Shown: positions 6,699 to 57,158, numbered from the stretch's first letter. The stretch: 64,000 nt of DNA from Sphaerodactylus townsendi (GCF_021028975.2 NC_059439.1:32860001-32924000); one strand, 5' to 3'. Numbers and translations: made by a program. The notes: generated by a model from the letters alone, not told the origin.

Positions 6699-7145
6699 AT
6701 GAGGCCGTCAGAAGGCGCCTGCTGCTTCCTGCTGCTGTTGCTGGTGGCCGAATTGCTGCCCGGATCATCCGGCGGCAACAATCCCCGCTACGAGAAATTC
6801 CTGAGCCAGCACCGGGACGACCCCAGGAGCAGCTTCCACGGGCGCTACTGTGACAGCCTGATGCGCAGCCGGGGCCTCACCAAGCCCGAGTGCAAGGAAG
6901 TGAACACCTTTATCCACGGGTCCAAAAGGCAGATCCGGGCAGTGTGCGACCAAGAGGGGGTTCCCGACGGGGAGCTGCGGCGCAGCCTGCGACCCTTCCG
7001 GGTTACGACCTGCACCCACAGGGGTGGCTCAGTCCGCCCGCCCTGCGAGTACAAAGAGAACACCTCGCCCAGGTACATCGTCATTGGCTGTGAAAACGGC
7101 TGGCCTGTCCACTATGATGAGAGCCAAATCGTGACCACGGTCTGA
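6699..7145 (+). CDS. RNase A superfamily protein R1, angiogenin/RNase-like, 148 aa with signal peptide
   Basis: Hydrophobic leader; FLSQH (His12); CKEVNTF signature (Lys41); PVHYD (His119/Asp121); 6 Cys in the mature chain as in non-mammalian RNases; acceptor ttcctgttagcag just upstream; AATAAA at 7368. Confidence 0.95.
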   Translation: MRPSEGACCFLLLLLVAELLPGSSGGNNPRYEKFLSQHRDDPRSSFHGRYCDSLMRSRGLTKPECKEVNTFIHGSKRQIRAVCDQEGVPDGELRRSLRPFRVTTCTHRGGSVRPPCEYKENTSPRYIVIGCENGWPVHYDESQIVTTV

Positions 7146-10389: not shown

Positions 10390-12279
10390 CCATAGCCTGA
10401 GCTGAGCGAAAGGGAACTCCATCCTCTCTAGAATACATGTAGGTCCCAGCCAGGATTTTCCCCCCAAAGACATCCTTTAATATTTGCAAAAAGCAGTTTC
10501 CATTGAATGGATGAGAAATGGTTGGCTACATATTATGGAAGTTTCTGGTTGATCGAAGAAAGACCAGCCACAGGAGGGGGTGGTCTCCCAAATTGGTCGC
10601 CAAACTACGACCCCCTGACTACTGCGCCCAGCTTGGGGAGGGTTGCCCTGTTTACAGGCACTATCCAGAGGATCCTGAGGTGGTCCTGAAAGACCAAATG
10701 TCCCTCTTCGGTCACCTTGGCTGTGAGTGTGGCAGGTTGCTGAGGAGAGGAAGATGGCTACTCATTGCAAGCAAGTACAAATTTATCATCAGGAGCAAAA
10801 GTGGCATAGTGGTTAAGAGCAGGTGCATTCTAATCTGGAGGAACAGGGTTTGATTCCCCGCTCTGCCGCTTGAGCTGTGGAGGCTTATCTGGGGAATTCA
10901 GATTAGCCTGTGCAGTCCCACACACACCAGCTGGGTGACGTTGGGCTAGTCACAGCTTCTTGGAGCTCTCTCAGCCCCACCCACCTCACAGGGTGTTTGT
11001 TGTGAGGGGGGAAGGGCAAGGAGATTGTAAGCCCCTTTGAGTCTCCTACAGGAGAGAANNNNNNNNNNNNNNNNNNNNNNNNNNNNNNNNNNNNNNNNNN
11101 NNNNNNNNNNNNNNNNNNNNNNNNNNNNNNNNNNNNNNNNNNNNNNNNNNNNNNNNNNNNNNNNNNNNNNNNNNNNNNNNNNNNNNNNNNNNNNNNNNNN
11201 NNNNNNNNNNNNNNNNNNNNNNACACTCATTGTAAACTGAACACACATACCCTCCCTGCTTACAGATTAACTTTTATTAGATGCAGCTAGGGTTAGGGTT
11301 AGATCTTTTGCCCACTGTTGATTCAAAAAACCCAAATGGATTTCCTCAGGCGGTGTAACAAATTAAGGAATATAGGACCATTTGAAAGGTTAACAAATAA
11401 GATTAGATTTATTCAGAGGGAGGAAAAGAAAGATGCCTTTAAGATGATTTGGAAAAAGTTTTATGATTTGTTTAATGGAACTTTGAGAGCATAGCTTGTT
11501 AAAGAGTTTTCTTTAACAGTCTCAGGGGCTTAGATGAAAATTCTGAATAAGGTAATAAATAGTCATATCAGATGACGGATGGACAGACAGAAAGACAGAC
11601 AGACAGATAGATTTTGCATCTTATTTGGCCATCTTGGCCATCTTAGAGGGAAGTACATAGACACACCTTTTCTTCTTCTCCCTATTTTTGCTTGGTGAGG
11701 TTTTTTTTCATTATCATAACTTGATGGTGTCATCTTTTATATTGGACATGAGGTTACTATACGGTTCTTTTCTTTGTTTTGTTCAGTGGTTACATTTTGT
11801 TTCTATATGTGTATAATAATTTGTAAAACAACAAATAATCTGTAAAAGTTTCTAAACATGGAGCTAGTCTTTCTCATTGAGTGGCACCAAGAAATCACAG
11901 ACACAACTTGTGAGGAATCCTGGACCAGGGAATGAAATCTGGCCACAGCCTGATGAAATGGGGCTACGACAATTCAAACCGGACCTGGTCAAGTCACCTG
12001 CCAATAGCCATGGTGGATCTTGTCCAGCCGCGTTCCCCATCATCACCTGAACAAGACCCTGAAGCTGAAACACATCCAGGTCAAGATACCTTTGTGAGTT
12101 CGGTCCCAACCTCTCACAAGCAAGTTCTTCATTCTTGTCCTGGACTCCCTCCCAGTTAAGAGGTTTGGGGCAAGATACCATTTCTCAACTTAACTTTTTT
12201 TGAAGTGCAGGAAGTAAATGTCTGTTATTTCAGGGGATCAAGTAGCCATCGGAGAAAATCTCTGTGGAAACCTTCATCC

Positions 12280-12478
12280 CCCCAATTGCGCCATTCTTTC
12301 GCATTCCCGATGTGGCAAGTAGCTGAATGTTCCTCCTTTTTCGACCCTGCCCCTGAACCGACGGAGATCTATATAACAACTCAGAGGGCAGGTAGAGGGA
12401 GAGCCCTTGGTGTGCAAAACCCATCCTTCAGCATCTGCAGGTGTTCATTGAATCAGGCAAGACCAACTGTGGGTAAGT
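12280..12478 (+). promoter_or_regulatory. Promoter and non-coding exon 1 of R2
   Basis: ctatataa at about 12369, G|GTAAGT donor at 12473; homologous module upstream of six other paralogs; matches the canonical two-exon RNase A gene structure. Confidence 0.75.
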
Positions 12479-13104
12479 CAGAGGAGCCAACGATCTGGGC
12501 TTGAATTCTCCTATATGAAACTGCTTCAAGAAGAGACCCTAATTTCAGAGATCGGGGGTGGGTGGGTACCAGGGGCAGGGTCTTTGCAGTGGTGGCACAA
12601 ACACTTCTACCAACACTTCTGAATGGTTGGTAGACCAGTCCTCTGGATAGCTGGTTACCCATGAGTGAAAGTAATGGTAGACCTGGCCACTAGAGAGCTG
12701 GTTCCAAGACCTGTCCATTGGGGGGTGCAATTTCAGGGCTTGCCCTTGGGGCTGTTTTCTGTAGATATGCACCTGTGGGAAGGGAGAGGCCTCAGCATGG
12801 TATAATGTCGTAGAGTTCACCATCCAAAGCTGCAGTTTTCTGTAGGGCAGCTGTTCTCTGTAGTCTGGAGAGCAGGTGCAAATCCAGCCAGTTGTATTAC
12901 CTGGAAGCTGGCAAACTTACACTGGATTGTACCACTTTGTGCTGCAAGTGGAGGTGGAGGCTTTCAATGGAAACCCCCATGCATGTAGCAGAATAGCACC
13001 TCCAAAGAAAAGAGGTAGGTTAAGCTCTGCCTAGCCCTGTGCCTGGAGCTTTTTAATGTTAGGGGTTATTCAGGAAATAAGGCAACATGCCTACACCCTC
13101 CACT

Positions 13105-13908
13105 TGCAATTTCTGGGATGTTCCTGAAGGGGGTGCATTTTTTGATGTATCAACACCAAAATGTCAGGGCATCATCTGGAAACTGTCCTGTTGGGACACC
13201 CCCCCCCAAGTTTGCTGCAGTTTGGTTTAGGGGGTCCAAAGTTATGGACCCTCAAAGGCGGTGCCCCATCTTTGCTAAGGAGATGGGGGCTACCCTTTTG
13301 AGGGTCCATAGCTTTGGCCCCCCTGAACCAAACTGCACCAAACCTTGGGGGTGCCATCATGACCGTCTCCAGATGGTACCCTGAAATGTTGGTGCTGATA
13401 TGTCCAAGAATGCCCTCCCTGCAAGAACATCCCGAAATTTGCCCAAGAATCTTTGTTCTGCATTGAGTTTTCTGCATTGCTGTCAATGGGGGTTGCAGGC
13501 TGGGGGGGGGGACATTTCTGAAGGCACAGTCTCAAAGCTTTCGGGGTCTCATAAGGAGACTGCCCTGATGATACCCCCCAGGTTTGGTGCAGTTTGGTTC
13601 AGGGGAGCCAAAGTTATGGACCCTCAAAACTGTAGCCCCCATCTTCTATTAGCTCCCATTGGAAACAATGGGGGTAGGGGCACCCCCTTTTGGAGTCCAT
13701 AACTTTGGACTCCCCGAACCAAACCTCACCAAACTTGGGGGGCAGCATAAGGACGGTCTCCTGATGATACGCTGAAAACTGCGCCCCCTGCAGGCCAAAA
13801 ATGGAAAACCACTAAAAATACCCAAAAACGAACCCAGCATTTTGATGCCCACCACAAGGTGATGCCCTGGGCAGCTGCCCACCTTGCCCAATGGGCATTA
13901 TGCCAGTG
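13105..13908. mobile_element. DNA-transposon-like repeat with reiterated internal inverted subunits
   Basis: Repeated aaagttatggaccctcaaa / gagggtccatagcttt motifs. Confidence 0.45.
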
Positions 13909-14428
13909 TGGGTGACCTTGGATTAGTCACACACTCTCAGCCTAACCTACCCCAAAGGGTTGTTTTGAATATGAACTGGAGAACAGGAGAATGATATAAG
14001 CAGCCTTGGGTACCCGCTGGGAAGAAAAAACAGGGTATCAATTAAAAAAAAGAAAAGAAAGAAAAATTAAAAGAATAAATATGAATAGTAAATAAATACT
14101 AGTGTTGTGCAGGGGGTTAAGAATGCTGGACTTGTATCTGGAACCCATGGGTTCGAGTCCCAATGCAAGCCAAGGCGGCTGACTGGTTGACCTTGGGTCA
14201 CTCACAATATCTCAGCCTGGCCCACTCCACAGGGTTGTTGTGAGGACGAGATATGCTGCGTTAGGCCCCCATTGGGAGTAAAGGCAGGGTATGAATGACT
14301 GATATAAAATAATGATCAATGGTGGTTTCTGCACAGCACAGTTATAAGGCATGTAATACGTTATTAATGCCCCCGTTTTCCCCTGTTTGCCTTTGTACTG
14401 GAGATTTCACCCCTGCAGGAAGTGAGTG

Positions 14429-14950
14429 TGTAACCTCAGCTTGTGGGGTCTGTGGGGCAGAACTTGGAATGAGTTTGCAACAACAAATTTTAAAAACAAG
14501 ATGGTTTACTTTCTTAACATATAACATCAACATTTAACATCACACTTCAAGGTCCTGTTCAGGTTGCATTTTCAAGTCCTTATATTTACAGTCTACTGAT
14601 ACTGCCAAGTCCAATTCTTCTTTGCAAGTGGGTTGGCTCCTGAAGACTCCAAGGGCTTGGTGAACAGGATTCCACATGATGAAGGCTTCCAGGAGAACTC
14701 TCACCCATTACAACCCCAAAAAGAAACCCTGAAACAATAAACTCCAACATTTACAACAAAGCAAAAATAAACAACTACCTTCCCACTAGTTCCCAACAAC
14801 ATTGCAGTTACCTTAACAAGGTGTTAAGGGCTTATACAACCAAGGTCCGAGTCTGGTAGCCTTGTCTCCAAATTATGAGCTCTGCAGCCTTCTGCTGCTT
14901 TGAGTCTCCACCCCTTTCTGGGTCAACCCATTCTGAGCATGGGAGTTACA
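14429..14950 (-). mobile_element. Solo LTR in the R2 intron
   Basis: TGTAAC...GTTACA termini, 4-bp TSD agtg; minus-strand AGTAAA at about 14505. Confidence 0.7.
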
Positions 14951-15428
14951 AGTGCAAACAGCAGAGGTGTAACTCCAAGGGGACTGGGGTGGGTGGGTGC
15001 GCAACACACCGGGCATGCACCCCTGTGGGGGTTTGGTTAGGGCTTTCCGGGGGCCTGGCAGGGGCATTCTGGAGCCATGGCAAGGGTGTTCTGGGGCGGG
15101 ACGGGGGCGGAGGGCACACCAGTGTACTGGGCACTTCCCCCCCCTTGCTACGACTCAGGCAAACAGTACTGGTTGCTGCAGCTCCTTTGGTTTCTCCAAA
15201 AAGATTGCTAGTTTAGCGATTTTTGTAAAACCCGGATTGAGGGAAATACAACCGGCTGGACCCATTTGGGGGAAGAGCCCTGTGTGAAATTCTTCCCCGA
15301 AACGGGATAAACAGCTTCCTCAGCCCATTATATTTCGGCTGTGCAGAAACCCCCACTGTCACCCTTAAGTTGAGAAGCAGCCCTCATGTTTCCTTTCTTC
15401 TTCTGGGGGTCTCCCAGGTCACGCCAGG

Positions 15429-15845
15429 ATGACTCCGAAAATCTCCTTCTGGTTACTGCTCCGTTTGGCCGTCCTTCTGGCCGCTTTTCTGCTGCAGTCC
15501 AGTGAAGGGTCGAGATACCGGCATTTCCAACGGCAGCACGTTGATCATCCTCGGACCGGAGCCGCCAACGACAACGCCTACTGCAATCTCATGATGCGGC
15601 GGAGAGGCTTGACGAGAGGCCGCTGCAAACCCACCAACACCTTCATCCATAGCAGTCTCAACACCATTCGAAGTGTCTGCCAAGGGAGACGGAATCTGTG
15701 CGACAGCCGTCAGAGTTTCTCTATGACGGTTTGCCGCAACAGAGGTCGTTATCCCAGATGCAATTATGTTGGCCGGCGACACAACAGGAGAATGCGTCTG
15801 GGCTGCAGAAACGGGGTGCCTGTTCACTTCGACAGAATGCTGTAG
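15429..15845 (+). CDS. RNase A superfamily protein R2, very Arg-rich, 138 aa
   Basis: Signal peptide ending SEG; FQRQH, CKPTNTF, PVHFD; 7 Cys; 24 Arg in 111 mature residues. Confidence 0.95.
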   Translation: MTPKISFWLLLRLAVLLAAFLLQSSEGSRYRHFQRQHVDHPRTGAANDNAYCNLMMRRRGLTRGRCKPTNTFIHSSLNTIRSVCQGRRNLCDSRQSFSMTVCRNRGRYPRCNYVGRRHNRRMRLGCRNGVPVHFDRML

Positions 15846-16256
15846 GCCGCAGCCGCCCACGCTGCACCCGCAGGAAGCCAGAAACCGAAGGAAATCTTGC
15901 AGCGGCCGTGACCTAGCTCTGCTTTGCTTAATGCTTTCTCAACGATGGATCTCTGGGGCATTTCCATAGTGCACATTTAAACTCACTTCGCACGTCTTCT
16001 TTCTCCCCCGAGAATCCCAGGACTTGTCGCTGCATAGAACGGAGCTTACAGATCGCTCATGTAGAAAACGGAGATCATAGGATGCTCAGTGTTGTCATCA
16101 AATGAGAAATCCCAGGATTCTCAGGGGGGGGGGACTGAAATGGATGAGGGACTGGTATAAAATCCCCTGTGTCGATATTGAGTTGATGGAATGAATGACC
16201 TGTTATCTCAGTAGAAATAGCGCTTTTCAAGGGTATCAGTTATTATAGGCCTAATC

Positions 16257-16391
16257 AGTGGTGGCGAACCTTTGGCACTCCAGGTGTTATGGACTACAAT
16301 TCCCATCAGCCCCTGCCAATTGGCCATGCTGGCAGGGGCTGATGGGAATTGCAGTCCATAACATCCGGAGTGCCAAAGGTTCGCCACCACG
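16257..16391. mobile_element. Palindromic MITE (relatives at about 3003-3151, 43148-43292, 48180-48327)
   Basis: Whole element is an inverted repeat: ggactacaattcccatcagccc / gggctgatgggaattg(c/t)agtcc. Confidence 0.75.
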
Positions 16392-17513
16392 GGCCTAGTA
16401 CATACACTCCATTGAAGTACTGTCCACTTTACAGTGAGTTGCTACCAGTGGTGTCTTTTCCTCTATTTTTCTCCCAACAGCCCCAGGCGTCAGAAGCCTG
16501 AATGTGTTAACAGGGTTTGGTTCAGAGCTGGGCTTATCGCTGTTTCCCATAGTTTTGAGCAGCGGAAATGTTCGTAAACATTCTACAACACCTCATCAGC
16601 TAAGCAAGTTCAGTCCACCGAAGCTAGAATTCTCACAACCAAGAGCAGTAGAGCAGTGGTGGGATTCAAATAATTTAACAACCGGTTGTTTACAAGCACC
16701 GTTTTAACAACCGGCTCTGCCAAAGTGGTGCGAACCGGCTGAATTCCACCGCTGCAAGAGAGGCTTCAAACACCGCAGGGCATATTTGACTCAAGAGTCA
16801 TCTTACACTGAGGTTATCTAATAGCAAAGTGGTCAAAAGTGTCGGGCACTTAAAAAAAACCCACAGTGCCCTGTTCTTTGTTACTTTCCATGCACTATTT
16901 ACGTCTCTGCAGTCATTCCTGTGTCCCAACCATAAGAGATGCCAACCTCCAGCTGGGACCTGGAGATCATCCAGAATTCCAGCTGTTCTCCAGACAAGAG
17001 ATCAGTCCCTCTGGAGAACATGGCCGTTGGAGGGTGGGTTCTAGGACATTATACTCCTCAGAGCTCCTTCTGCTCCCCAAACTCTGCCTTCCCGAGGCAC
17101 CACCAACAAATCTCTGGGAATCTCCCAACCGTGGAGTTGGCAGCCCCACATGGAATGCCCGTTGACCCAAACAAGGCTTTGCCTTGAAAATATAAGTAAC
17201 CGCAGGCCTCCTGACGTTGTTTCCTCCTGTCCTCTGGGATTCATTAGGAGCATTATAAACCATCTCCTCCGCTCACCCTACAGATGAGCCCGGAACGCTC
17301 CCCTCCCTTCCCCATTCCTCTCCCAGTAATATGGAGGGAACACTGTGTCACCAGGATGAAGAGCGTTTGCTGCTGCCTCGCTTTGTTTTGCTTTACCCAA
17401 TAAATCCTTGCAGCAAATGAAAAAAAACCTAGTGTTTGTGTCTTCTTGTGTGTGTGGGACCTAATCCACTGAGATGTGCTGGGTTTACCGCTCCTTCCTA
17501 GAAGGGTCATAGC

Positions 17514-17892
17514 CAGAGGGGGGATCCAGCAGGTTCTCACAAGTTCCCGTGATAGGTTACTAATTATTTGTGTGTGCCGAGAGGGGGTGACCAATGGGTG
17601 ATTTTGCCACGTGGTTTTTGCCTTAGTTACGCCCCTCCTCTCAGCAGTAGCGCGCAGAACTTGAAGCAGTCTAGCAGGAGGTGCACCGGTGTGCGTGGCA
17701 GCCTGCGCCTGCGTGCATTTGTTTCCCACCCAAGGACCGGTGCAACGGCGGCTGCGTCCTTGCCACAGCCCCGCCCCCGGAATGCCCAACCATGCCCCCA
17801 TCATGCCCCGCCCAGCCCCATTGGCGCTACGCCACAGTTTGAATCCCACCACCATGGGAACCTGTTACTAAAAATTTTGGATCCCACCACTG
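17514..17892 (-). mobile_element. hAT MITE family A
   Basis: 8-bp TSD gtcatagc; empty site in paralogous units. Confidence 0.85.
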
Positions 17893-18526
17893 GTCATAGC
17901 CAGCCTCCGTTGCTTGGTGGGGCTGCCAGATCTTCAGCAGAAAGGGACAGAGAGTGGTCTTAGTGGGGGGGCTGATGTCCAGGGCTTCTCTGAAGAAGAG
18001 GGGGGATGTGTGGAGAAGGACCGAGCTCTGGTCCTCGGTCTGCTTGGTGGGACTTCCAGATCTCCTAGTTGCTGAGTAAGACTTCAAAAAGTGGGCAACA
18101 GAAGCTGAATCTTGTGGTTTTTATTACTAGGATGAAGGGGTGATTATAAAATAGGGGGACGCCAACAGCCTCATGAAGTATCGGGGGCCAGTGCCCACAA
18201 ACAGCCCTGGAGAAGAATTTGCCTAAAACCCTGCAGAAGAATTTGCACTCTGTCTCCACGCAGGGGCCTTGTGGTGTGGTGGTTCCCACTTTGAAGTATC
18301 TGCCACGTCCCTGCTCGGTATGAGGGTCACTGGGTAAGGCTCAAGGCTGCAACCATAGCTTGTTGACCAATAGAGGTGACCATAGCCTGAGCTAAGCGAA
18401 AGGGCACTCCGTCCTCTCTAGAATACCTGTAGGACCCAGCCAGGAATTTCCCCAGAGATGTCCTTGAAAGTTTACAAAAAGCAATTTGCATTTAATGGAT
18501 GAGAAGTAGTTGTCTGCATATGGAAC

Positions 18527-19198
18527 ATAGGAACATAAGAACAAGCCAGCTGGATCAGACCAGAGTCCATCTAGTCCAGCTCTCTGCTACTCACAGTGGC
18601 CCACCAGGTGCCTTTGGGAGCTCACCTGCAGGATGTGAGCACTTAATGGTCTTCTCTTTGAAACATTGCTCTCGAGCACTACCTGGACCTGTTAAGGCAT
18701 TTGTTACAATCTCTCAGATCCAAAAAGAAGTTCAAGATTGGTAGCCATAGAATGCGACTTCTCACTCCCCGCTAAAATCTGTCCAGAAGCCCTTTTTAAA
18801 GCTATCCCAGGTTAGTGGCCCATCACCACCTCCTGCTGGCAGCATATTCCAAACACCAATCCTGCGTTAGCATTGAAGAGGAGTGTTTCGGCTTTTGTGA
18901 GTCCTAATTCTTCCCCAGCATTTTCAATGAATGCCCCCTGGTTCTAGTATTGTGAGAAAGAGAGAAAAATTTCTCTCTGTCAACATTTTCTACCCCATGC
19001 ATAATTTTATAGACTTCAATCATATCCCCCCTCAGACGTCTCCTCTCCAAACTAAAGCGTCCCAAACGCTGCAGCCTCTCCTCATAGGGAAGGTGCTCCA
19101 GTCCCTCAATCATCCTCGTTGCCCTTCTCTGCACTTTTCCTATCTCTTCAATATCCTTTTTGAGATGTGGCGACCAGAACTGAACACAGGACTCCAAG
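18527..19198 (-). mobile_element. CR1 LINE 3' fragment
   Basis: CVQFWSPHLKKDIE..VQRRAT..LPYEERL..SLERRRLRGDMI; (TTCTTATG)n tail. Confidence 0.9.
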
Positions 19199-20480
19199 TT
19201 TTTGGTTAATCAAAGAAGTTTCTGGTTGATCAAAGAAAGACCAGCCACAGGGGGCAGTCTCCCAAACTCGTCACAAAACTATAGTCCCCCGTGCTCAGCT
19301 CAGGCGGCGCTGTTTACAGGTACTATCCAGAGAATGCTGAGGTGGTCCTGAAAACCAAATATCCCTCTTCGGTCACCTTGACTGTGAGTGTAACAGGTTG
19401 TTAAGGAGAGGTAGATGGAGATAGCTGGCTACTCATTACAAGCATGTAAAACTGTGATTATCTATGAAAACATTGTAAGCAGAAAACCCATCACTTAGTT
19501 GCAGATAGTTGGCCTTTTGCCCAATGTTTTCATAGATTTCCTCAGATAGGTGGCGAGCAGTGGCGTAGCGCCCAGGGGTGGGGCGTGATACACCAGGCAT
19601 TTGCCGGTGCGTGGGCGTGCCGTGGGCATGGTGTGAGCGGGTGGGGGAATGGCAAGGGCACGGGGCGAATTCACGCCCTGGGTGCAGTTCCCCCTCGCTT
19701 CGCCCCGGTGGTGTCATAAATTAAGGAACATAGGAGAAGTTGAAAGGTTAGCAAATAAGATTAGATTTATTCAAAGGGAGAAAAAGAAAGATGTCTTTAA
19801 GATGCTTTGGCCATCTTAAGGGAANNNNNNNNNNNNNNNNNNNNNNNNNNNNNNNNNNNNNNNNNNNNNNNNNNNNNNNNNNNNNNNNNNNNNNNNNNNN
19901 NNNNNNNNNNNNNNNNNNNNNNNNNNNNNNNNNNNNNNNNNNNNNNNNNNNNNNNNNNNNNNNNNNNNNNNNNNNNNNNNNNNNNNNNNNNNNNNNNNNN
20001 NNNNNNNNNNNNNNNNNNNNNNNNNNNNNAGGTTTTTCTCTTTCTCCTCAAGAATAGGGGACATAAAATAAAAACAGGCTGAGTAAAGTCTCTTTTCCCA
20101 TCTCCTACAGTGTTTGTGTTGGATAGGAGACTGAATACCTGGAACGCTGCAGTTCAAATTTTACTTCTGCTACAAGCAAACAGCAATTTTAAAAATCTAT
20201 GAAATGTCAATGAAAATCAAAACTAGAGCAGCACTATTAGGAGAACATCATGAAACAAACCTTGCTGATTGTATTTGGTGAAATGTAAGAAAGCACTTAC
20301 GAAAGAAATTGAGCCATACAAAACAAGAAAAAATTAGAATCACGGAATTACGTATTTAAATGAAAAGGCGACACTTTTCATAGAGAAGGATTATGTGCAC
20401 TCAGTTGTTATTTTTATATCCTCTGATGTCCTCTCTCTTGCCTGCCATTGGTGCCTTACTCGGCAATGGTGAGATGTAGC

Positions 20481-21068
20481 CAGTGGTGGGATCCAAAAAT
20501 TTTAGAAACAGGTTCCCATGGTGGTGGGATTCAAACAGTAGCATAGCGCCAATGGGGCTGGGCAGGGCACGATGGGGGCATAGCTGGGCATTCCGGGGGC
20601 AGGGCATTAATAATTTCTCTGTTTCTGTAAAAAACTTTTACTGTAAAAAAAAGTTCCTAATTTCCAGCTGGTATCTTTCTGTCCATAATTTAAACTCATT
20701 ATAGCAAGTCCTATCGTCTACTGCCAACAGAAACAACTACTTCTCCTCTAATTGACTGCCTGTCAAATACTTAATACTTTCAAATACTTAATTTTGTTTC
20801 TAGAAATCAAAAGAAATATACTTTCTTTAAACACGGAACTTTACCATATTTCTAAAACATGTTTTTGAAACAGCCCAACAGGGAGAATTATCCCGTTTTC
20901 TACCTTCGCTAACCAGCCACATAGGAAACAACAGGACTTTATGATTTTTGGACCTAATGGGATTTCTAACGGAAAAGCAGACCCAATTAGTAACCCCCTC
21001 TCGGCACACACAAATAATTAGTAACCCACTCTCGGGAACTGGTGAGAACCTGCTGGATCCCACCTCTG
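20481..21068 (+). mobile_element. hAT MITE family A variant
   Basis: 8-bp TSD gatgtagc; similar to 59321-59882. Confidence 0.85.
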
Positions 21069-21668
21069 GATGTAGCCAACCCTTAGCTTACAGGCCTGGG
21101 GCAGTGGCTGGTTTCCTGTCTCTTTTCCCCTTTTCCTGAGTGGAGAAATCGCTGAGGAATTTGCTTTGCAAGACCCAAAAGCCCTGCCCCATTTGCAGTG
21201 GCACAATGAATTAGGCCTACGGACCCAAGACTGGCATTTTCAAATCCACATAATTCTGAGTGCACAAAAGACGTAGACCTGAGCCCATCAGACTGAGGAC
21301 CAGAGCTCTGTCCTTCTCCGCACATCCCCCCCCCTCTTCTTCAGAGAAGCCCTGGACATCAGCCCCCCCCCCCCACTAAGACCATGCTCTGTCCCTTTCT
21401 ACTGAAGATCTGGCAGCCCCACCAAGCAACGGAGGCTGGCTATGACCCTTCTTGGAAGGAGTGGAACCCCAAGCACATATCGGTGGATTAGAAATTAGGT
21501 GCCACACACACAAGAAAACACAAACACTAGTTTTTTTCATTTGCTGCAAGGATTTATTGGGTAAAGCAAAATAAAGCGAGGCACTAGCAAACACTCTTCA
21601 TCCTGATGACACAATGTTCCCTCCATATTACTGGGAGATGAATGGGGAAGGGAGGGGAATCTGTTGGG

Positions 21669-22167
21669 CAGTGATGGCGAACCTTTTTGAGACCGAGTGC
21701 CCAAATTGCAACCCAAAACCCACTTATTTATTACAAAGTGCCAACACGGCAATTTAACCTAAATACTGAGGTTTTCGTTTAGAAAAAGCGGTTGGCTCAG
21801 AGGTGTGCGTTACTCGGGAGTAAGCTTGGTGGTAGTCAGTGGCTTTGCTTTGAAGCATCCGTGCAACTCTTCCAATGGGTGGATCATGAGCCTAAGAGGG
21901 TTTAATCAGAAGCAAGCCCCATGGCCAGCAACCAAGCTTACTCCCAGGTAAAGGATCATGCTTCAGTTCTTCGCATGAAAATCAGTGAGGTTTAACAGTG
22001 CTTAACAGGGTTACCTACACTGCTTCCCCAAACTATGTCTTAGGTTTAATGCTAATAATTGACGCCAGCGGTCCAGGCCAGCCTAGATGTGTGTGTATGG
22101 GGGGAGTGCGACTCTGTTTGCTCGTGCCCACAGAGAGGGCACCCGTGCCATAGGTTTGCCACCACTG
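21669..22167 (-). mobile_element. hAT MITE family B
   Basis: Same family; TSD ctgt(t/a)ggg. Confidence 0.8.
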
Positions 22168-23392
22168 CTGTAGGGTGACTAGAGGAGAAGGGTTGTAACG
22201 CTTGTAAGGAACCCCAGAGGACAGGAGAAAACAACATCAGGAGGCTTGCGGTTACTTATATCTTTAAGGCAAAGCCTTGTTTGGGTCAATGGGCATTCCA
22301 TGTGGGGCTGCCAACTCCAGGTTGGGAGATTCCCGGAGATTTGTTGGTGGTGCCTCAGGAAGGCAGGGTTTGGGAAGCAGAAGGAGCTCTGAAGGATATA
22401 ACGTCCTAGAATCCACCCTCCAAGCTACCATGTTCTCCAGGGGGACTGATCACTTGCCTGGAGAACAGCTGGGATTCTGGATGATCTCCAGGTCCCAGCT
22501 GGAGGTTGGCATCTCCTATGGGTGGGACACAGGCATGACTGCAGAGACGTAAATAGTGCATGGCAATTAACGAAGAACTGGGCACTATGATTTTTTCAAA
22601 AGTGCCCAACACTTTTGACCACTCTGCTGTTAGTTAAGCTCAGCGGAAGATGACTCTTGAGGCAAATATGCCCTGCGGTGTTTGAAGCCCCTATTGCTCT
22701 TGGTTGTGAGAATTGTAGCTTCGGTGGACTGAAATTGAAGAAGAAGAAGAAGAAGAGTTTGGATTTATATCCCCCCTTTCTCTCCTGCAAGGAGACTCAA
22801 AGGGGCTTACAATCTCCTTGCCCTTCCCCCCTCACAACAAACACCCTGTGAGGTAGGTGGGGCTGAGAGAGCTCCGAGAAGCTGTGACTAGCCCAAGGTC
22901 ACCCAGCTGGCATGTGTGGGAGTGCATAGGCTAATCTGAATTCCCCAGATAAGCCTCCACAGCTCAAGCGGCAGAGCGGGGAATCAAACCCGGTTCCTCC
23001 AGATTAGAGACACGAGCTCTTAACCTCCTACGCCACTGCTGCTGTCAACTGAATATTGACACAGGTGATTTTATACCAGTCCCTCAACCATTTCAGTCCC
23101 CCCACCCCACCCCGGAATCCTGGAATTTCTCATTTGAAGACAGCACTGAGCATTCTTTAAGCTCCGTTTTATACATGAGCGATCTATAAGCTCCATTCTA
23201 TACAGCGACAAGTCCTGGGATTCTCGGGGGGAGAAAGAAGACCTGCTAAGTGAGTTTAAATGTGCTCTATGGAAATGCCCCAGAGATCCATTGTTGAGAA
23301 AGCATTAAGCGAAGCAGAGCTAGGTCGTGGCCGCTGCAGGATTTCCTTCGGTTTCTGGCTTCCTGCGGGTGCATCGTGTGGGCGGCTGCGGC

Positions 23393-23830
23393 CTACCGGA
23401 GTCCAGCGAGGTGAACAGGCATCCTGTTTACACAGGACACCCTAACTCTCCGGTTCTGTCGCCGGCCACGATAATTGCAATTAGGATAACGACCTCTACT
23501 GCGGCAGAGGGTGACACGATAACGCCGTCTGCTGTCATACCGATCCCGAGTGCGAGGCACCTTGGTCCCTCCCCCTCGGCAGATATGCTGAATGCTGCCG
23601 GGACTGCTATGGATGAAGGTGTTGGTGCGTTTGCAGGTGCGTCTCATCATGCCTCTCCGCTGCATCATGAGATTGCAGTAGGCGTTGGCGTTGGCTGCCT
23701 GGGTCTGAGGATGATCAATGTGCTTCCGTGCGAAATCCCGGTATCTGGCCCCTTCGCTGGACTGCAGCAGAAGAACAGCCAGAAGGACGGCCAAACGGAG
23801 CAGCAGCCAGGAGGAGATTTTCGGAGACAT
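23393..23830 (-). CDS. RNase A superfamily protein R3, very Arg-rich, 145 aa (true start MSPKISS inside the listed 230-aa ORF)
   Basis: Leader homologous to R2 and preceded by ctcccag...ccag-gATG acceptor; FARKH, CKRTNTF, PVHL; 6 Cys; 27 Arg. Confidence 0.95.
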   Translation of the reverse strand: MSPKISSWLLLRLAVLLAVLLLQSSEGARYRDFARKHIDHPQTQAANANAYCNLMMQRRGMMRRTCKRTNTFIHSSPGSIQHICRGGGTKVPRTRDRYDSRRRYRVTLCRSRGRYPNCNYRGRRQNRRVRVSCVNRMPVHLAGLR

Positions 23831-24289
23831 CCTGGTGGGACCTGGGAGACCCCCAGAAGAAGACAGGAAACATGAGGGTTGCTTCTCAAGCTTAAGGGTG
23901 ACAATGGGGGTTTCTACACAGCTGAAATATAATGGGCTGAGGAAGCTGGTTATCCCGTTTCGGGGAAGAATTTCACACAGGGCTCTTCCTTCAAAGAATT
24001 TCACACAGGGCTCTTCCAGCCAGTTGTATTTCTCTACCGAAAATAGCCCCGAGGGCAAGCCCTGAAATTGCACCCCCCCCCCCATGGGCAGGTCTTCCCC
24101 ATCTTGGAACCAGCTCTCCAGTGGCCAGGTCTACCATTATTTTCACTCACAGGTAACCAGCTCTCCAGAGGACTGGTCTACCCACCATTAAGAAGTATTG
24201 GTAGATTAGGTTTTCGTGTAGGCCAGGTCTACCCATTACTTTCAAAGGCAGGTAACCAGCTTTCTGGTGGCCTGGTCTACCCACTTTTA

Positions 24290-24291
24290 TT

Positions 24292-24350
<59 letters not shown>

Positions 24351-24352
24351 TA
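24290..24352 (+). repeat. (CAT)n microsatellite
   Basis: Direct reading. Confidence 0.95.
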
Positions 24353-25762
24353 TCATTCTCAATATTGATGATTATCATTATCNNNNNNNNNNNNNNNNNN
24401 NNNNNNNNNNNNNNNNNNNNNNNNNNNNNNNNNNNNNNNNNNNNNNNNNNNNNNNNNNNNNNNNNNNNNNNNNNNNNNNNNNNNNNNNNNNNNNNNNNNN
24501 NNNNNNNNNNNNNNNNNNNNNNNNNNNNNNNNNNNNNNNNNNNNNNNNNNNNNNNNNNNNNNNNNNNNNNNNNNNNNNNNNNNNNNNNNNNNNNNNNNNN
24601 NNNNNNNNNNNNNNNNNNNNNNNNNNNNNNNNNNNNNNNNNNNNNNNNNNNNNNNNNNNNNNNNNNNNNNNNNNNNNNNNNNNNNNNNNNNNNNNNNNNN
24701 NNNNNNNNNNNNNNNNNNNNNNNNNNNNNNNNNNNNNNNNNNNNNNNNNNNNNNNNNNNNNNNNNNNNNNNNNNNNNNNNNNNCCCGAAGGGCTCTGGGC
24801 GGTGTACAACAAAATCACAACTAAAACAATGTGCACAATAAATAAGTGGTAAATAGTTAAAATACATAACTCAGAATAAGCAGCATTCTAAAACCCAGTA
24901 AAACAATATTAATAATACTAATGATGGCTCCCAGTCCCAAGGCCGGGAGGGGACAGACAGTCTACCCATTGTGTCTTAATGGCAGGTAGATCAGCCCTCT
25001 GAGTGACACAGCAGCCTGGGCGCCCCTGGGAAAGTTGTGCCCAGGGCTCACACCTGACTTGCCCCACCCTAAATACGCCACTGTCCTCCCTGGGCTCCAC
25101 ACTCAAAATCCCCAGGAATTCCCCAACCATTCTATTACCCCCACTTTCCCGCCATGTGGCTCTGAAACAGCACAGCTGCATTTTCAGAGCACTCAAAACT
25201 TTATTTCCCTTTCAAACATATCGTGTCAGTTCCCAATTCTGTCCGTTGCTTTCTCTTAGGGGTTTCTGGGTCTCTTTCCCCCATAACAAGAATACCTGAA
25301 AGGACAACCCATCCTTTCCTTCATGTCTGCTGTGTTCATGGGCAGGAATCCTCACAGGGAATCTTTGGAGCTCTTCCACCCTCTGTTGATCCTCACCTGA
25401 GAATGAGTGGGCGCCCCTTGAAAACAGTCAGCTGGTACTTTCCACATCTTAACATGAGAGTTGCTGGCACCTGAACAGCCATTTTGTCCTCTTCAGGACA
25501 CAGTATAGTTTTTGGTCTCCCCAAATATGCTGCATATTGTCAGAGATCAGCTCTGAAGTGAGTTAATTACACAATCCTCTGAAGTGTTGAGCCAGTGAAG
25601 GCTGATTCTACACTTTGTTTATCACGACAACGCCCCACTGAATTTGACTTACTCTGAGGTAAAGATCGTATCCTTATAAAGTGATACCTGGCACATTTAT
25701 CCAGGCTGTCAATCCCACTGAATTTAATGAGATTTACTTCTAGCTACATGGACGAAGGACTG

Positions 25763-26075
25763 CTGTGGCGTAGGAGGTTAAGAGCTCGTGTATCTAATCT
25801 GGAGGAACCGGGTTTGATTCCCAGCTCTGCCGCCTGAGCTGTGGAGGCTTATCTGGGGAATTCAGATTAGCCTGTACACTCCCACGCACGCCAGCTGGGT
25901 GACCTTGGGCTAGTCACAGCTTCTCGGAGCTCTCTCAGCCCCACCTACCTCACAGGGTGTTTGTTGTGAGGGGGGAAGGGCAAGGAGATTATCAGCCCCT
26001 TTGAGTCTCCTGCAGGAGAGAAAGGGGGGATATAAATCCAAACTCCTCCTCCTCCTCCTCCTCTTCTTCTTCTTC
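25763..26075 (+). mobile_element. tRNA-derived SINE, Squam3-like (young copies also at about 4667-4945, 6340-6630, 10790-11058, 22737-23043, 35737-36035, 37709-37971, 47881-48163, 48951-49231, 58858-59140)
   Basis: A-box tggcgtaggagg, B-box ggtttgattccc, about 300 bp, (CTT)n tail, many near-identical copies. Confidence 0.85.
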
Positions 26076-26542
26076 TGGCATACAGTGGAATCCCAAGCAC
26101 ATTTATTGAGAGGAATATTCTTTTTTGTTCTTTTTCCCTGCAGCCAGAGTGGTGGACTCTAATCTGGAGACCCAGTTTTGTTTCCCCACTCCTCCACATG
26201 AAGCCTGCTGGGTGACCTTGGGCCAGTCACAGTTCTCTCAGAACTCTCTCAGGCCCACCTGCCTCACAGGGTATCGGTTGTGGGGAGGGAAAGGGAAGGT
26301 GATTGTAAGCTGTTTTAAGACTCCTTAAAGGTAGAGAATCACAGGGTATGTGACCCAACTCTTGTTCGTCTCGTCAAAATAAAGTCTAGATCTGATAGAA
26401 GTGGTAAAGGTTGCTTCATGGTTTTGTGCCACCACTGCAAAGACCCTGCCTCTGGTATCCGCCGCCCCCTGATCTCTGAAATTAGGAACTCTTGAAGCGA
26501 TTTCATACAGGAGAATTTAAGCCCAGATCATAGGCTCCTCTA

Positions 26543-26740
26543 ACTTACCCACGGTTGGTCTTGCCTGATTTGATGAACACCTGAAGATGCTGAAGGATGG
26601 ATTTTGCACTCCCAGGGCTCTTTCTCAACCTGCCCTCTGAGATTATATAGATTTCTGTCGGTTCAGGGGCAGGGTCAAAAAAGGAGGAACGTTCAGCCAC
26701 TTGCCACATCAGGAATGTGAAAGAATGGCGCAAGGGGGGG
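26543..26740 (-). promoter_or_regulatory. Promoter and non-coding exon 1 of R3
   Basis: Reverse-strand ctatataa at 26643-26650, donor GTAAGT at 26548-26543; inverted together with R3. Confidence 0.75.
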
Positions 26741-26979
26741 ATGAAGGTTTCCACAGATATTTTCTCTGGTGGCTTCTTGGATCCCCGAAATAACAGACAT
26801 TTACTTCCCGCACTTCAAAAAAGCTAAGTTGAGAAATGGTATCTTGCCCAAAACCTCTTAACCGGGAGGGAGTCCAGGACAAGAAAGAAGAACTTGCTTG
26901 TGAGAGGTCGGGACCAGTGATGGGATTCAAATAGTTTAACAACCGGTTCCGTTATGGGATTCAAATAATTTAACTGGTT

Positions 26980-28825: not shown

Positions 28826-29023
28826 TCCCCCCTTGCGCCATTCTTTCACATTCCTGATGTGGTAAATGGCTGAATGTTCCTCCTTTTTCAACCCTGCCCC
28901 TTAACCGACAGAGATCTATATATAACTCAGAGGGCAGGTTGAGGGAGAGACTTGAGCGGGCAAAACCCATCCCTCAGAATCTGCAAGAGTCCATCGCTCA
29001 GGCAAGACCAACCGTGGGTAAGT
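28826..29023 (+). promoter_or_regulatory. Promoter and non-coding exon 1 of R4
   Basis: ctatatataa at about 28916, GTAAGT donor at 29018. Confidence 0.75.
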
Positions 29024-31621: not shown

Positions 31622-32047
31622 ATGTCTCCGAAAATCTCCTTCCATCTGGCCGTCCTTCTGGGAGCGGTTCTACTGCAGTCCGGCGAAGGAACCAGATACC
31701 GGGATTTCGCAAACAGCCACATCGAACCTCTGGGACCCAGGAACGAAAAACTCAGCGCCTACTGCTACCGCATGATGCGGGAGAGAGGCCTGAGCAGACG
31801 CACGTGCAAACCCTCCAACGCCTTCATCCACAGTAGTGCCAACAGTATTCAGCTAATCTGCCGTGGGGCAGGGACCCGGGTGCACCCCTGGCGGAATATG
31901 TACGACAGCAGGCAGAGTTTCCGTGTCACCACCTGCCACAGTAGAGGCCGTTTCCCTAGATGCCATTATCAAGGTGAGCAACGGAACGGGAGAGTTCGTG
32001 TGGGCTGCAGAAACGGGGCGCCTGTTCAGTTCTACAGACTCCGGTAG
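31622..32047 (+). CDS. RNase A-like protein R4, predicted catalytically inactive, 141 aa (true start MSPKISF inside the listed 273-aa ORF)
   Basis: Signal peptide with a 4-codon in-frame deletion relative to R2; 6 Cys; FANSH, CKPSNAF, PVQFY (His119 to Gln, CAG at 32027-32029); ORF intact. Confidence 0.9.
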   Translation: MSPKISFHLAVLLGAVLLQSGEGTRYRDFANSHIEPLGPRNEKLSAYCYRMMRERGLSRRTCKPSNAFIHSSANSIQLICRGAGTRVHPWRNMYDSRQSFRVTTCHSRGRFPRCHYQGEQRNGRVRVGCRNGAPVQFYRLR

Positions 32048-35429: not shown

Positions 35430-35595
35430 TGTATGTTGAAACCACCTGACACTTCCTCTTTTTTTTTAAATCCTGCCCCTGCACCATCTGAGATCTATAT
35501 AATACTTCAGAGTCCAGGCTGAGGGAGAGACTGGGACGGGCAAGATCCATCCCTCAGCATCTCCAGCGCTCACACAGGTCGAAACTTGGGTAAGT
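35430..35595 (+). promoter_or_regulatory. Promoter and non-coding exon 1 of R5
   Basis: cacttcctcttt (PU.1 consensus, reverse) at 35450, tatataa at 35496, GTAAGT at 35590. Confidence 0.75.
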
Positions 35596-36996: not shown

Positions 36997-37422
36997 ATGT
37001 TTCTGAAAATCTCCTCCTGGCTGCCGCTCTGCTATTTTGCTGTCCTTCTGGTGGCTTTCCTGGGACAGTCCAGTGATGGGGCCACCTACGCGGATTTCGC
37101 ACAGAGGCACATCGATTACCCCCGAACCCCAGCCTCCAACCCCAACGCCTACTGCAATCACATGATGGCGCGGAGAGGCATGACCAACGGCAGCTGCAAA
37201 GCGAAAAACACCTTCATCCATGACGATCCCAGCAACGTTCAGAATATCTGCAGCGGGAAAGAGTCTGGGAAGCTTTGTGACAGCAATCAAAGCTTCTTCC
37301 TCACTTTCTGCAGCAATAGAGGTCGTTATCCTAACTGTAATTATGTCGGCACACAAATGACCAAGAGAGTTCAAGTGGGCTGTGTCGGCGACCTGCCTGT
37401 TCACTTCCAAACTGACCTGTAG
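36997..37422 (+). CDS. RNase A superfamily protein R5, 141 aa
   Basis: Signal peptide ending SDG; FAQRH, CKAKNTF, PVHFQ; 7 Cys; NGS and NQS sequons. Confidence 0.95.
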   Translation: MFLKISSWLPLCYFAVLLVAFLGQSSDGATYADFAQRHIDYPRTPASNPNAYCNHMMARRGMTNGSCKAKNTFIHDDPSNVQNICSGKESGKLCDSNQSFFLTFCSNRGRYPNCNYVGTQMTKRVQVGCVGDLPVHFQTDL

Positions 37423-42699: not shown

Positions 42700-42879
42700 T
42701 TTGTTTCACATCCTGTATGTAGAAACCATCGGACTCTTCCTCTTTCTTTTTTGATCCTGCCCTTGCCCCACCTGAGATACATATAATACTTCAGAGTCCA
42801 GGCTGAGAGAGAGACTTGGATGGGCAAGATTCATCCCTCAGCATCTCCAGGGCTCAGGCAGGACGAAACTTGGGTAAGT
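42700..42879 (+). promoter_or_regulatory. Promoter and non-coding exon 1 of R6
   Basis: Variant catataa at 42780, GTAAGT at 42874. Confidence 0.7.
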
Positions 42880-43871: not shown

Positions 43872-44306
43872 ATGTTTTCGAAAACCTCCTCCTGGCTGCT
43901 GCTCTGCTATTTTGCTGTCCTTCTGGTGGCTTTCCTGGGACAGCCCAGTGATGGGGCCAACTACGCGGATTTCGCACGTAAGCACATCGGTTATCCGAAA
44001 ACCGCAGCTGACAACCCCAACGCCTACTGCAAAGTCATGATGAAGGACAGAGGCATGACCGACGGCAGCTGCAAAGCGAACAATACCTTCATCCATGACG
44101 AGCCCAGCAACATTCAGAATATCTGCAGCGGGGGAGGTACCAGGTGGTCTGGGAATCTCTATGACAGCAGACAAAGTTTCCCTCTCACTTTCTGCCGCAA
44201 TAGAGGTCGTTATCCTAAGTGCAATTACATCGGCACGGAAATGACCAAGAGAGTCCGTGTGGGCTGTGTGAAGGGGTTGCCTGTTCACTTCCAAACCGAC
44301 CTGTAG
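43872..44306 (+). CDS. RNase A superfamily protein R6, 144 aa
   Basis: Signal peptide; FARKH, CKANNTF, PVHFQ; 6 Cys; closest to R5. Confidence 0.95.
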   Translation: MFSKTSSWLLLCYFAVLLVAFLGQPSDGANYADFARKHIGYPKTAADNPNAYCKVMMKDRGMTDGSCKANNTFIHDEPSNIQNICSGGGTRWSGNLYDSRQSFPLTFCRNRGRYPKCNYIGTEMTKRVRVGCVKGLPVHFQTDL

Positions 44307-47559: not shown

Positions 47560-47768
47560 GTTTGTTTCGCTTCCTGTATATAGAAACCACCTGACTCTTC
47601 CTCTTTTTCTTGATCTTGTCCCTGACCCACCTGAGATCTATATAATACTTCAGGGTCCAGGCTGAGGGAGAGACTGGTACGGGCAAGATCCATCCCTCAG
47701 CATCTCCAGACTTGGACGGGCAAGATCCATCCCTCAGCATCTCCAGACAGGGCGAAACTTGGGTAAGT
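47560..47768 (+). promoter_or_regulatory. Promoter and non-coding exon 1 of R7, with internal 37-bp duplication
   Basis: tatataa at 47639, GTAAGT at 47763. Confidence 0.75.
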
Positions 47769-50116: not shown

Positions 50117-50551
50117 ATGTCTCTGAAAATCTCTTCTTTGCTGTTGCTCTGCTCTTTTGCTGTCCTTCTGGTGGCTTTCCTGGGACAGTCCAGCGATGGG
50201 GCCACCTACGCGGATTTCGCACGGCAGCACATAGAACCTTCAGGACCCGGGAACAGCAACCCGAACGCCTACTGCAACCGCATGATGAGGCAGAGAGGCA
50301 TGACCACAGGAGCCTGCAAAACCTACAACACCTTCATCCATAGCGATCCCGACAGCATTCAGAATATCTGCTGCAGGCACTGGATCTGTACCTCCGGCAA
50401 TTTTTACAACAGCAGACAGCGCTTCCGTGTCACCGCCTGCTTCAATATCGGTCTTTATCCTAATTGCAATTATGTCGGCACACGAATGACCAAGAAAATT
50501 TGTGTGGCCTGTGTAAACGGGCTGCCTGTTCACTTTGAGAAATTCCTGTAG
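50117..50551 (+). CDS. RNase A superfamily protein R7, Cys-rich, 144 aa
   Basis: Signal peptide; FARQH, CKTYNTF, PVHFE; 9 Cys in the mature chain. Confidence 0.95.
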   Translation: MSLKISSLLLLCSFAVLLVAFLGQSSDGATYADFARQHIEPSGPGNSNPNAYCNRMMRQRGMTTGACKTYNTFIHSDPDSIQNICCRHWICTSGNFYNSRQRFRVTACFNIGLYPNCNYVGTRMTKKICVACVNGLPVHFEKFL

Positions 50552-54149: not shown

Positions 54150-54324
54150 GTTTCGCATCTTGTATAAAGAAACCATCTGATTCTTCCTCTTTTTTTTGAT
54201 CCTGCCCCTGCACCAAATGAGATCTATATAATACTTCAGAGTCCAGGCTGAGGGAGAGACTTGGACGGGCAAGATCCATCCCTCAGCGTCTCCAGGGCTC
54301 AGGCAGGACGAAACTTGGGTAAGT
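54150..54324 (+). promoter_or_regulatory. Promoter and non-coding exon 1 of R8
   Basis: tatataa at 54225, GTAAGT at 54319. Confidence 0.75.
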
Positions 54325-56717: not shown

Positions 56718-57158
56718 ATGTCTCTGAAAATCTCTTCCTGGCTGCTGCTTTGTTATTTTGCTGTCCTTCTGGTGGCTTTTCTGGGACAGCGCAGTGATGG
56801 GGCCACCTACGAGGATTTTGCACGGCAGCACATCGATTATCCCGAAACCGCAGCCGGCGACCCCAACGCCTACTGCAATCTCATGATGAGGCGGAGACAA
56901 ATGACCACACACAGCTGCAAAGCCCTCAACACCTTCATCCATGGCGATCCCGACAGCATTCAGAATATCTGCCCTTCGAAAAGAACTTTGTGCTCTTCGA
57001 ATTTTTACAACAGCATCTTGTCTTTCCGTCTCACTCTCTGCAGCAATAGAGGTCGGTTTCCCAATTGCGATTATACTGGCACTCGAAAGACCAGCAGAGT
57101 TCGAGTGGCCTGTGTGAACGGGTGGCCTGTTCATTTCGCAACCGACCTCGACCTGTAG
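56718..57158 (+). CDS. RNase A superfamily protein R8, 146 aa
   Basis: Signal peptide; FARQH, CKALNTF, PVHFA; 7 Cys. Confidence 0.95.
   Translation: MSLKISSWLLLCYFAVLLVAFLGQRSDGATYEDFARQHIDYPETAAGDPNAYCNLMMRRRQMTTHSCKALNTFIHGDPDSIQNICPSKRTLCSSNFYNSILSFRLTLCSNRGRFPNCDYTGTRKTSRVRVACVNGWPVHFATDLDL

Follow-up and report, generated by a model that had tools for sequence, protein, structure and literature searches.

The 64,000-nucleotide stretch of the Sphaerodactylus townsendi genome analyzed here (GCF_021028975.2, NC_059439.1:32860001-32924000; hereafter the window) carries eight genes of the RNase A family, R1 to R8, two of which, R2 and R3, are loaded with arginine (Arg) to an extreme degree, while R5–R8 are weakly cationic. 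This raises the question of whether R2 and R3 gained their charge recently or their neighbors lost it, and of what such a charge would be for. The answer we favor, with moderate confidence, is that R2 and R3 are likely secreted host-defense RNases that have kept an old charge, and that R5–R8 likely lost theirs after a later duplication.

All eight single-coding-exon open reading frames (ORFs) score above the Pfam cut-off for PF00074 (R2, E = 7.5e-28; R3, E = 1e-26), all eight keep the six conserved cysteines unchanged in the alignment, and each begins with a hydrophobic, signal-peptide-like N-terminus, as judged by eye in the alignment only. A tblastn scan of the window found no further RNase copy. 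R2 and R3 are inverted duplicates in convergent orientation, both intact two-exon genes, and among named proteins R3 comes closest to gecko ones (65–69% identity). The coding sequences compared, together with the two Arg clusters, are as follows (dS, synonymous divergence):

15429..15845, plus strand: R2 coding sequence, a 138-residue precursor with a mature chain of 111 residues, 24 Arg, net charge +21
23393..23830, minus strand: R3 coding sequence, a 145-residue precursor with a mature chain of 118 residues, 27 Arg, net charge +26, catalytic triad intact
15771..15797, plus strand: C-terminal Arg cluster of R2, GRRHNRRMR, read from the sequence
23441..23470, minus strand: C-terminal Arg cluster of R3, RGRRQNRRVR, on strands E93-100 and E102-107 of the model
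31622..32047, plus strand: R4, the third Arg-rich paralogue, 22 Arg, +18; exon-1 donor at 29016
36997..37422, plus strand: R5, low-Arg paralogue, 7 Arg, +4; exon-1 donor at 35588
43872..44306, plus strand: R6, low-Arg paralogue, 9 Arg, +8; donor at 42872
50117..50551, plus strand: R7, low-Arg paralogue, 9 Arg, +8, nine cysteines in the mature chain; donor at 47761
56718..57158, plus strand: R8, low-Arg paralogue, 11 Arg, +4; donor at 54317
6699..7145, plus strand: R1, an angiogenin-like RNase of a separate deep lineage, dS above 1.3 or saturated against all others

Mature chains were defined by placing the signal cleavage by eye from the alignment. On these chains R2 has 24 Arg, 1 lysine (Lys) and 4 acidic residues, giving a net charge of +21 and a computed isoelectric point (pI) of 11.7, and R3 has 27 Arg, 3 Lys and 4 acidic residues (+26, computed pI 11.8); R4, at 22 Arg and +18, has a computed pI of 11.3. 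The computed pI of the remaining chains is 8.8–9.4 (R1, 15 Arg, +5; R5, 7 Arg, +4; R6 and R7, 9 Arg and +8 each; R8, 11 Arg, +4). Our recount reproduced exactly the net charges that the first-pass annotation of this locus had counted by hand for R1–R8, and bore out its statement that the difference is almost all Arg, with a mean of 24 Arg in R2–R4 against 9 in R5–R8, and fewer Lys in R2–R4. Both C-terminal motifs that it quoted are present, in R2 and R3, and map to the final beta strands when R3 is modeled. Its further claim that Arg is concentrated in these strands was not confirmed, enrichment in the last 40 residues being insignificant (R2, 11 of 24 Arg, p = 0.20; R3, 11 of 26, p = 0.22, on a row without the terminal Arg). 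By thirds of the mature chain, Arg numbers 8, 5 and 11 in R2 and 7, 9 and 11 in R3, and the excess over R5–R8 is found in all three regions, being greatest at the C-terminus.

The direction of change was read from a comparison set drawn from three homologue searches, one listing 120 of its 251 hits, and an exhaustive search (best 150 of 362). We built a first tree of 124 rows and a focused tree of 56 rows hand-picked from those hits, rooted on angiogenin-like or other low-Arg rows; amphibian outgroups were tried and dropped, their long branches giving an unusable root. In both trees (support values and clade sizes are those of the 56-row tree) R5–R8 form a clade (100/99) that is nested with R2–R4 in a 26-row squamate clade (100/100), itself nested in a 44-row clade with turtles and crocodilians (98/91). 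Composition is not the cause of this grouping, since masking Arg and Lys left the same groups intact (R5–R8, 100/99; squamates, 99/97; 44 rows, 98/97).

High Arg counts run through these groups: 20–29 in eight gecko orthologues (median 23.5), 11–21 in nine other squamates including lacertids and snakes (median 18), and 12–24 in 17 turtle and crocodilian relatives (median 20), against 4–9 in three low-Arg squamate rows of the clade and 7–11 in R5–R8. Because lizard, snake, turtle and crocodilian relatives carry the same loading, the charge is likely old. The approximately unbiased (AU) test rejected a clade of 37 mostly Arg-rich rows that excludes R5–R8 and the three low-Arg squamate rows (p = 0.018), the group having been named after the first tree had been seen. 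At thirteen alignment columns Arg predominates in geckos and in turtles/crocodilians alike; of these, 11 still hold Arg in R2, 10 in R3, 8 in R4 and between 1 and 5 in R5–R8, and 15 of the 29 columns with an Arg majority in geckos lack Arg in all four of R5–R8. A Brownian estimate put the Arg count at 20.9 ± 2.7 for the R2–R8 ancestor and at 19 for the 44-row node, with 13 at the second node below that.

Since R5–R8 nest within an Arg-rich clade and the AU test rejects placing them outside it, we conclude that R2 and R3 kept the old state and that R5–R8 likely lost it. With about 21 Arg estimated for the ancestor and R5–R8 nested, the recent "gain" that the first-pass annotation saw in R2 and R3 reads rather as a loss in R5–R8; the trees, the AU test and the shared Arg columns likewise go against its comparison with eosinophil cationic protein (ECP), in which Arg is gained after duplication from a weakly cationic sister. 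We infer that Arg was gained once, on the stem of a sauropsid clade older than the turtle-squamate split. Squamates diverged before turtles and archosaurs separated. The turtle-archosaur split is placed at about 268–248 million years (PMC4000948).

As for when the charge was lost, dS between R2–R4 and R5–R8 (0.32–0.57) is similar to that within the groups (0.26–0.51), and the promoters of the two subgroups can still be aligned at 66–75%, which together favor a split within geckos. R1, at dS above 1.3, is an invalid baseline for R2–R8. Left unrejected by the AU test were a clade of R2–R8 (p = 0.27), a clade of all gecko rows (p = 0.47) and the pair R2 with R3 (p = 0.098), results that establish none of the three.

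The comparison set also held further low-Arg members of the Arg-rich clade (P0022, P0043, P0142, P0214, P0008, P0131 and P0134), which are iguanian, teiid, python, king cobra and alligator paralogues and suggest that reptile RNases lost charge more than once. In another group of reptile RNases (P0225, P0232, P0241, P0159 and P0160), net charges of +17 to +26 are built from many Lys as well as Arg, apparently by a separate route. One gecko record of 271 amino acids, P0130, contains two RNase domains in one predicted protein and may be a gene-model fusion of neighbors.

We then compared how charge has moved in each subgroup. Relative to gecko orthologues, charge-class changes number 8 down and 8 up in R2 and 7 and 7 in R3, and 13 down and 2 up in R5–R8, a count in which any highly charged start already predicts some excess of loss. 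R2 and R3 have 16 Arg columns in common, with 8 private to R2 and 10 to R3. In a drift simulation with eightfold CpG mutability, 24–27 Arg fell to about 10–13 after 30–40% residue change, matching R5–R8, and at least 20 Arg were retained in at most 1 of 200 runs after 30% change; without the CpG term, Arg counts as low as those of R5–R8 were rare. The Arg load of R2 and R3 looks to be maintained by selection. In the Arg columns lost from R5–R8, Arg has mostly given way to T, G, K, N, S or D, and mainly to Gln in only 1 of 15, so that CpG decay, although its counts fit, is no more than a possible route of the loss.

Between R2 and R3, 49 of 196 zero-fold sites differ (25%), compared with 137 of 1526 non-coding sites (9%; p = 1e-9) in a reference of four segments, each 6–10% different. 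In the signal peptide 4 of 50 sites differ, and 5 of 36 four-fold sites do, a proportion not significantly different from the zero-fold or the non-coding class. The flanks (15260-17290 against 22160-24000, and 12100-12610 against 26420-26920) are 90–94% identical and the mature coding sequence 77%, with the differences clustered in the second half of the coding exon. This suggests that change in the mature domain accelerated after the R2/R3 duplication.

The catalytic residues His12, Lys41 and His119 and the CKxxNTF motif are present in R1, R2, R3 and R5–R8. R4 carries Gln in place of His119 and Ala in place of Thr45, in an ORF that is otherwise intact and whose promoter and splice sites are intact too, and is likely, from these substitutions, a catalytically dead cationic RNase. 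The R3 model (predicted local distance difference test score, pLDDT, 97) has a three-disulfide RNase fold, with a template-modeling (TM) score of 0.95 to 2zpo, and R3 has six cysteines. R2, which has a 7-residue loop deletion and intact equivalents of His12, Lys41 and His119, has a seventh, Cys91, at 15699-15701; an extra cysteine of the L4 loop is likewise found in R5, R7 and R8, the mature chains of R2, R5 and R8 having seven cysteines and that of R7 nine. If unpaired, an L4-loop cysteine could link two chains covalently into a dimer. In several turtle relatives this loop contains two cysteines. In RNase A, Phe120 and Asp121 have a role in catalysis; at the R3 C-terminus (23393-23410) Leu and Ala occupy these positions, a change that, judged from the residues, may reduce catalytic efficiency, and R2 keeps Phe-Asp.

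Outside the coding exons we placed the following features:

12330..12472, plus strand: R2 promoter and non-coding exon 1, with a counterpart upstream of all seven genes R2–R8; reads of RNA run X7 fall in bin 12386-12566
12473..15417, plus strand: R2 intron, GT...AG, with donor and acceptor, containing repeats
15846..16186, plus strand: R2 3' untranslated region, 92% identical to its R3 counterpart at about 23045-23392 on the minus strand
23842..26700, minus strand: R3 intron and exon 1/promoter, the intron running from 26548 to 23842 with an assembly gap; donor match at 26550

The R2 promoter has a purine-rich GGAA box on the opposite strand (12330-12335) and a TATA-like element (12370-12376). 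A TATA-like element in the promoter and a GT donor at the end of a non-coding exon 1 are common to all seven genes R2–R8, and the GGAA box, a possible PU.1-like site, is kept in all seven. The non-coding exon 1 of R7 (about 47690-47750) contains a tandem duplication of about 30 bases.

R2 is transcribed: RNA was seen in one of the two RNA runs aligned to R2, the sole gene so examined. In run X7 (tissue coded), reads fell on the exon-1 bin and the exon-2 bins, the unique intron bins being nearly empty, and at position 15990 all 53 reads share the variant that run X5 has in its R2 contig. In run X4 (data kind not on record), a contig starts at the R2 acceptor, 15417, with zero differences. Run X6, of which about 6% was read, had zero reads on the R2 exons and is uninformative on silence, and no intron-spanning R2 joint was found among the matches listed. 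In the R2 3' region, a repeat-like stretch at 16249-16382 is skipped by the X4 contig, which suggests a polymorphic insertion.

A cationic host-defense role is, by analogy, the likeliest function of R2 and R3. Selection would keep the summed charge close to +20 as Arg comes and goes at single positions; as with ECP and the chicken leukocyte RNase A-2, the proteins would be set free by epithelia or from the granules of leukocytes (heterophils); and the surface Arg of a secreted protein of pI about 11.7 would bind anionic microbial envelopes and destabilize membranes, the mechanism described for ECP (PMC5964141, PMC12602997). Membrane action would be largely independent of catalysis, and R4, at +18 without His119, fits a role for charge apart from catalysis. 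The loss in R5–R8 could reflect relaxed selection or a shift of role, which the data do not separate.

Several observations weigh against this reading. Simulation without CpG hypermutability retained at least 20 Arg in 31–66% of runs after 30% residue change. The ratio of nonsynonymous to synonymous divergence (dN/dS) for R2/R3 is 1.06 (P = 0.39), it is significantly above 1 in none of the 21 pairs among R2–R8, and zero-fold sites of R2/R3 do not differ significantly from four-fold sites (p = 0.105), so that the selection signal depends on non-coding sites as the reference, where constraint or gene conversion could introduce a bias; with four-fold sites indistinct and dN/dS at 1.06, positive selection on the R2/R3 mature domain is only suggested. 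In the tree, the base of the squamate clade lacks resolution, a group of R5–R8 with the low-Arg iguanian, teiid and python rows is not rejected (AU p = 0.50), and the quail and turkey rows, on a long stem, have only 10–12 Arg and lie nearest R5 when Arg and Lys are masked. R3 stands about 5 Arg above the ancestral estimate, which makes a small recent gain in R3 possible. Finally, the one squamate RNase described in the articles cited, that of iguana, is reported to be active and to lack antimicrobial activity (PMC5964141).

Among other explanations, the one that survives best, unlikely as we judge it, is that the Arg load is old and serves a non-microbicidal role, in the binding or degradation of structured extracellular RNA, in glycosaminoglycan binding for cell uptake, or in egg, skin or reproductive secretions. 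Cationic RNases have been linked to binding of double-stranded RNA or heparan. The intact catalytic triad of R2 and R3, a nearest solved structure from turtle egg white at TM 0.95 and the iguana RNase just mentioned (PMC5964141) all speak for such a role, but R4 stays at +18 without His119, bird RNases that resemble the leukocyte type fall in the same clade, and fast replacement change after duplication is typical of host-defense genes (PMC12602997). A bolder form of our own interpretation is equally doubtful: R2–R4 would be a very old, uncharacterized, Arg-saturated sauropsid lineage, the reptile counterpart of ECP, with charge constant under Arg turnover, and R5–R8 would have been selected in one gecko lineage to shed charge for a new role, mirroring colobine RNASE1B.

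It is improbable that R5–R8 descend from an older low-Arg branch in common with iguanians, teiids, pythons or birds, the charge having been lost once and early and not within geckos. The AU test leaves this grouping standing (p = 0.50), a low-Arg group of nine rows has support 87/98, and with Arg and Lys masked the bird rows come out closest to R5; however, dS between the subgroups is about that within them and far below that of R1, their promoters are still alignable, and no R5–R8-like protein of another gecko ranked high in the profile search (best 120 of 251). A recent rise in Arg in R2, R3 and R4 from a weakly cationic, R5–R8-like ancestor, converging with ECP on cytotoxicity or cell penetration, we regard as very improbable: the charge contrast is real, R2/R3 replacement sites diverge fast and R3 has 26–27 Arg against an estimated 21 or so, but the gecko orthologues have a median of 23.5, R2 and R3 keep 10–11 of the 13 Arg columns common to geckos and turtles/crocodilians, the AU test stands against it (p = 0.018), and charge gains equal losses in both R2 and R3. 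There is next to no chance that GC-biased substitution inflated CGN codons in R2/R3 without functional meaning, the refuting explanation that the first-pass annotation had named and a cause we rejected, for although mature-chain GC is slightly higher in R2–R4 (0.56–0.58) than in R5–R8 (0.51–0.52), synonymous GC is not raised (four-fold non-Arg sites, 76/109 versus 112/166), AGA is the most frequent Arg codon (23 of 73), and R1 has the top synonymous GC (39/45) yet a net charge of only +5, so that the Arg load survives this check.

If R2 and R3 are host-defense RNases that kept an old charge, then R2, R3, R4 (without His119) and R5–R8 would form a natural panel for separating charge from catalysis in antimicrobial action, a matched set of charged and active, charged and catalytically dead, and discharged and active proteins, and leukocyte-type RNases, studied in chicken, would be extended to squamates. 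The inferred direction of change is corrected as well, the highly cationic state being probably the old one in this reptile RNase clade. ECP, bat RNase4 and colobine RNASE1B already show that charge shifts in both directions among RNase paralogues, so the finding is interesting but would not surprise a specialist, and Arg-rich orthologues are already annotated in public databases. Our search, which left subscription journals mostly outside, found no article about clusters of squamate RNases or how much Arg they contain; how new the finding is may depend in part on the reptile alignments supplementing PMC6794472.

Of the known systems, green turtle egg-white RNase (2zpo) is the best single-domain structure match of R3 (E = 1.8e-27, TM 0.95, root-mean-square deviation 1.2), although the two are only 42% identical, and P0030, a close sea-turtle relative of 2zpo with 10 Arg, falls outside the Arg-rich clade. 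The chicken leukocyte RNases A-1/A-2 (RSFR; PDB 4per chain B) belong to the RNase A family, as do R2 and R3, and are secreted, as R2 and R3 likely are; RNase A-2/RSFR is a bactericidal granulocyte/heterophil granule protein (PMC7597696, PMC5964141, PMC5473982). Quail and turkey RNases resembling 4per_B join the squamate clade of R2–R8 (99/95; masked, 99/99), on a long stem, the chicken sequences themselves being absent from the tree and the A-1/A-2 assignment resting on likeness to 4per_B. Among the best 60 PDB matches, 4per_B outranks single-domain mammalian chains for R3 and for an alligator relative, and is missing from the lists of R1 and of a gecko RNase that belongs to a different clade. 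Unlike R2 and R3, with 24–27 Arg, these related bird rows have 10–12.

Little brown bat RNase4 likewise combines a lineage-specific RNase expansion with charge divergence of paralogues, the charge gain falling in four paralogue copies (PMC3845642), but belongs to the mammalian RNase4 lineage. Colobine RNASE1B and sifaka RNASE1 have lost many Arg, in colobines after duplication (PMC8064638). The direction of change in colobine RNASE1B is that of R5–R8, a closer match than ECP versus EDN; the colobine loss is tied to leaf-eater digestion, and drift with CpG decay reaches R5–R8 counts too.

ECP (RNase 3) and EDN (RNase 2) resemble the gecko cluster in that an Arg-rich, high-pI paralogue stands next to weaker ones (pI 10.47 versus 9.20; PMC3845642), and R2 and R3, at 11.7 and 11.8 (computed), also pass pI 10 through Arg. 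ECP, however, gained its Arg after duplication, while in the gecko cluster the cationic state probably came first and gave rise to the weak copies. The first-pass annotation suggested a source of cryptic antimicrobial peptides, with C-terminal ones as candidates; in ECP it is residues 1-45, at the N-terminus, that make up the main antimicrobial region (PMC9515509). The extended L4 loop with a fourth disulfide, described for all mammalian RNases except RNase 5 (PMC6794472), was not found in R3, with six cysteines, or R2, with seven. ECP is not among the best 60 PDB matches of R3, and R2 and R3 lie in a sauropsid-only clade, in trees built without ECP. R2 and R3 are canonical RNase A-family members and probably not eosinophil RNases; by analogy, they probably work like ECP and arose differently.

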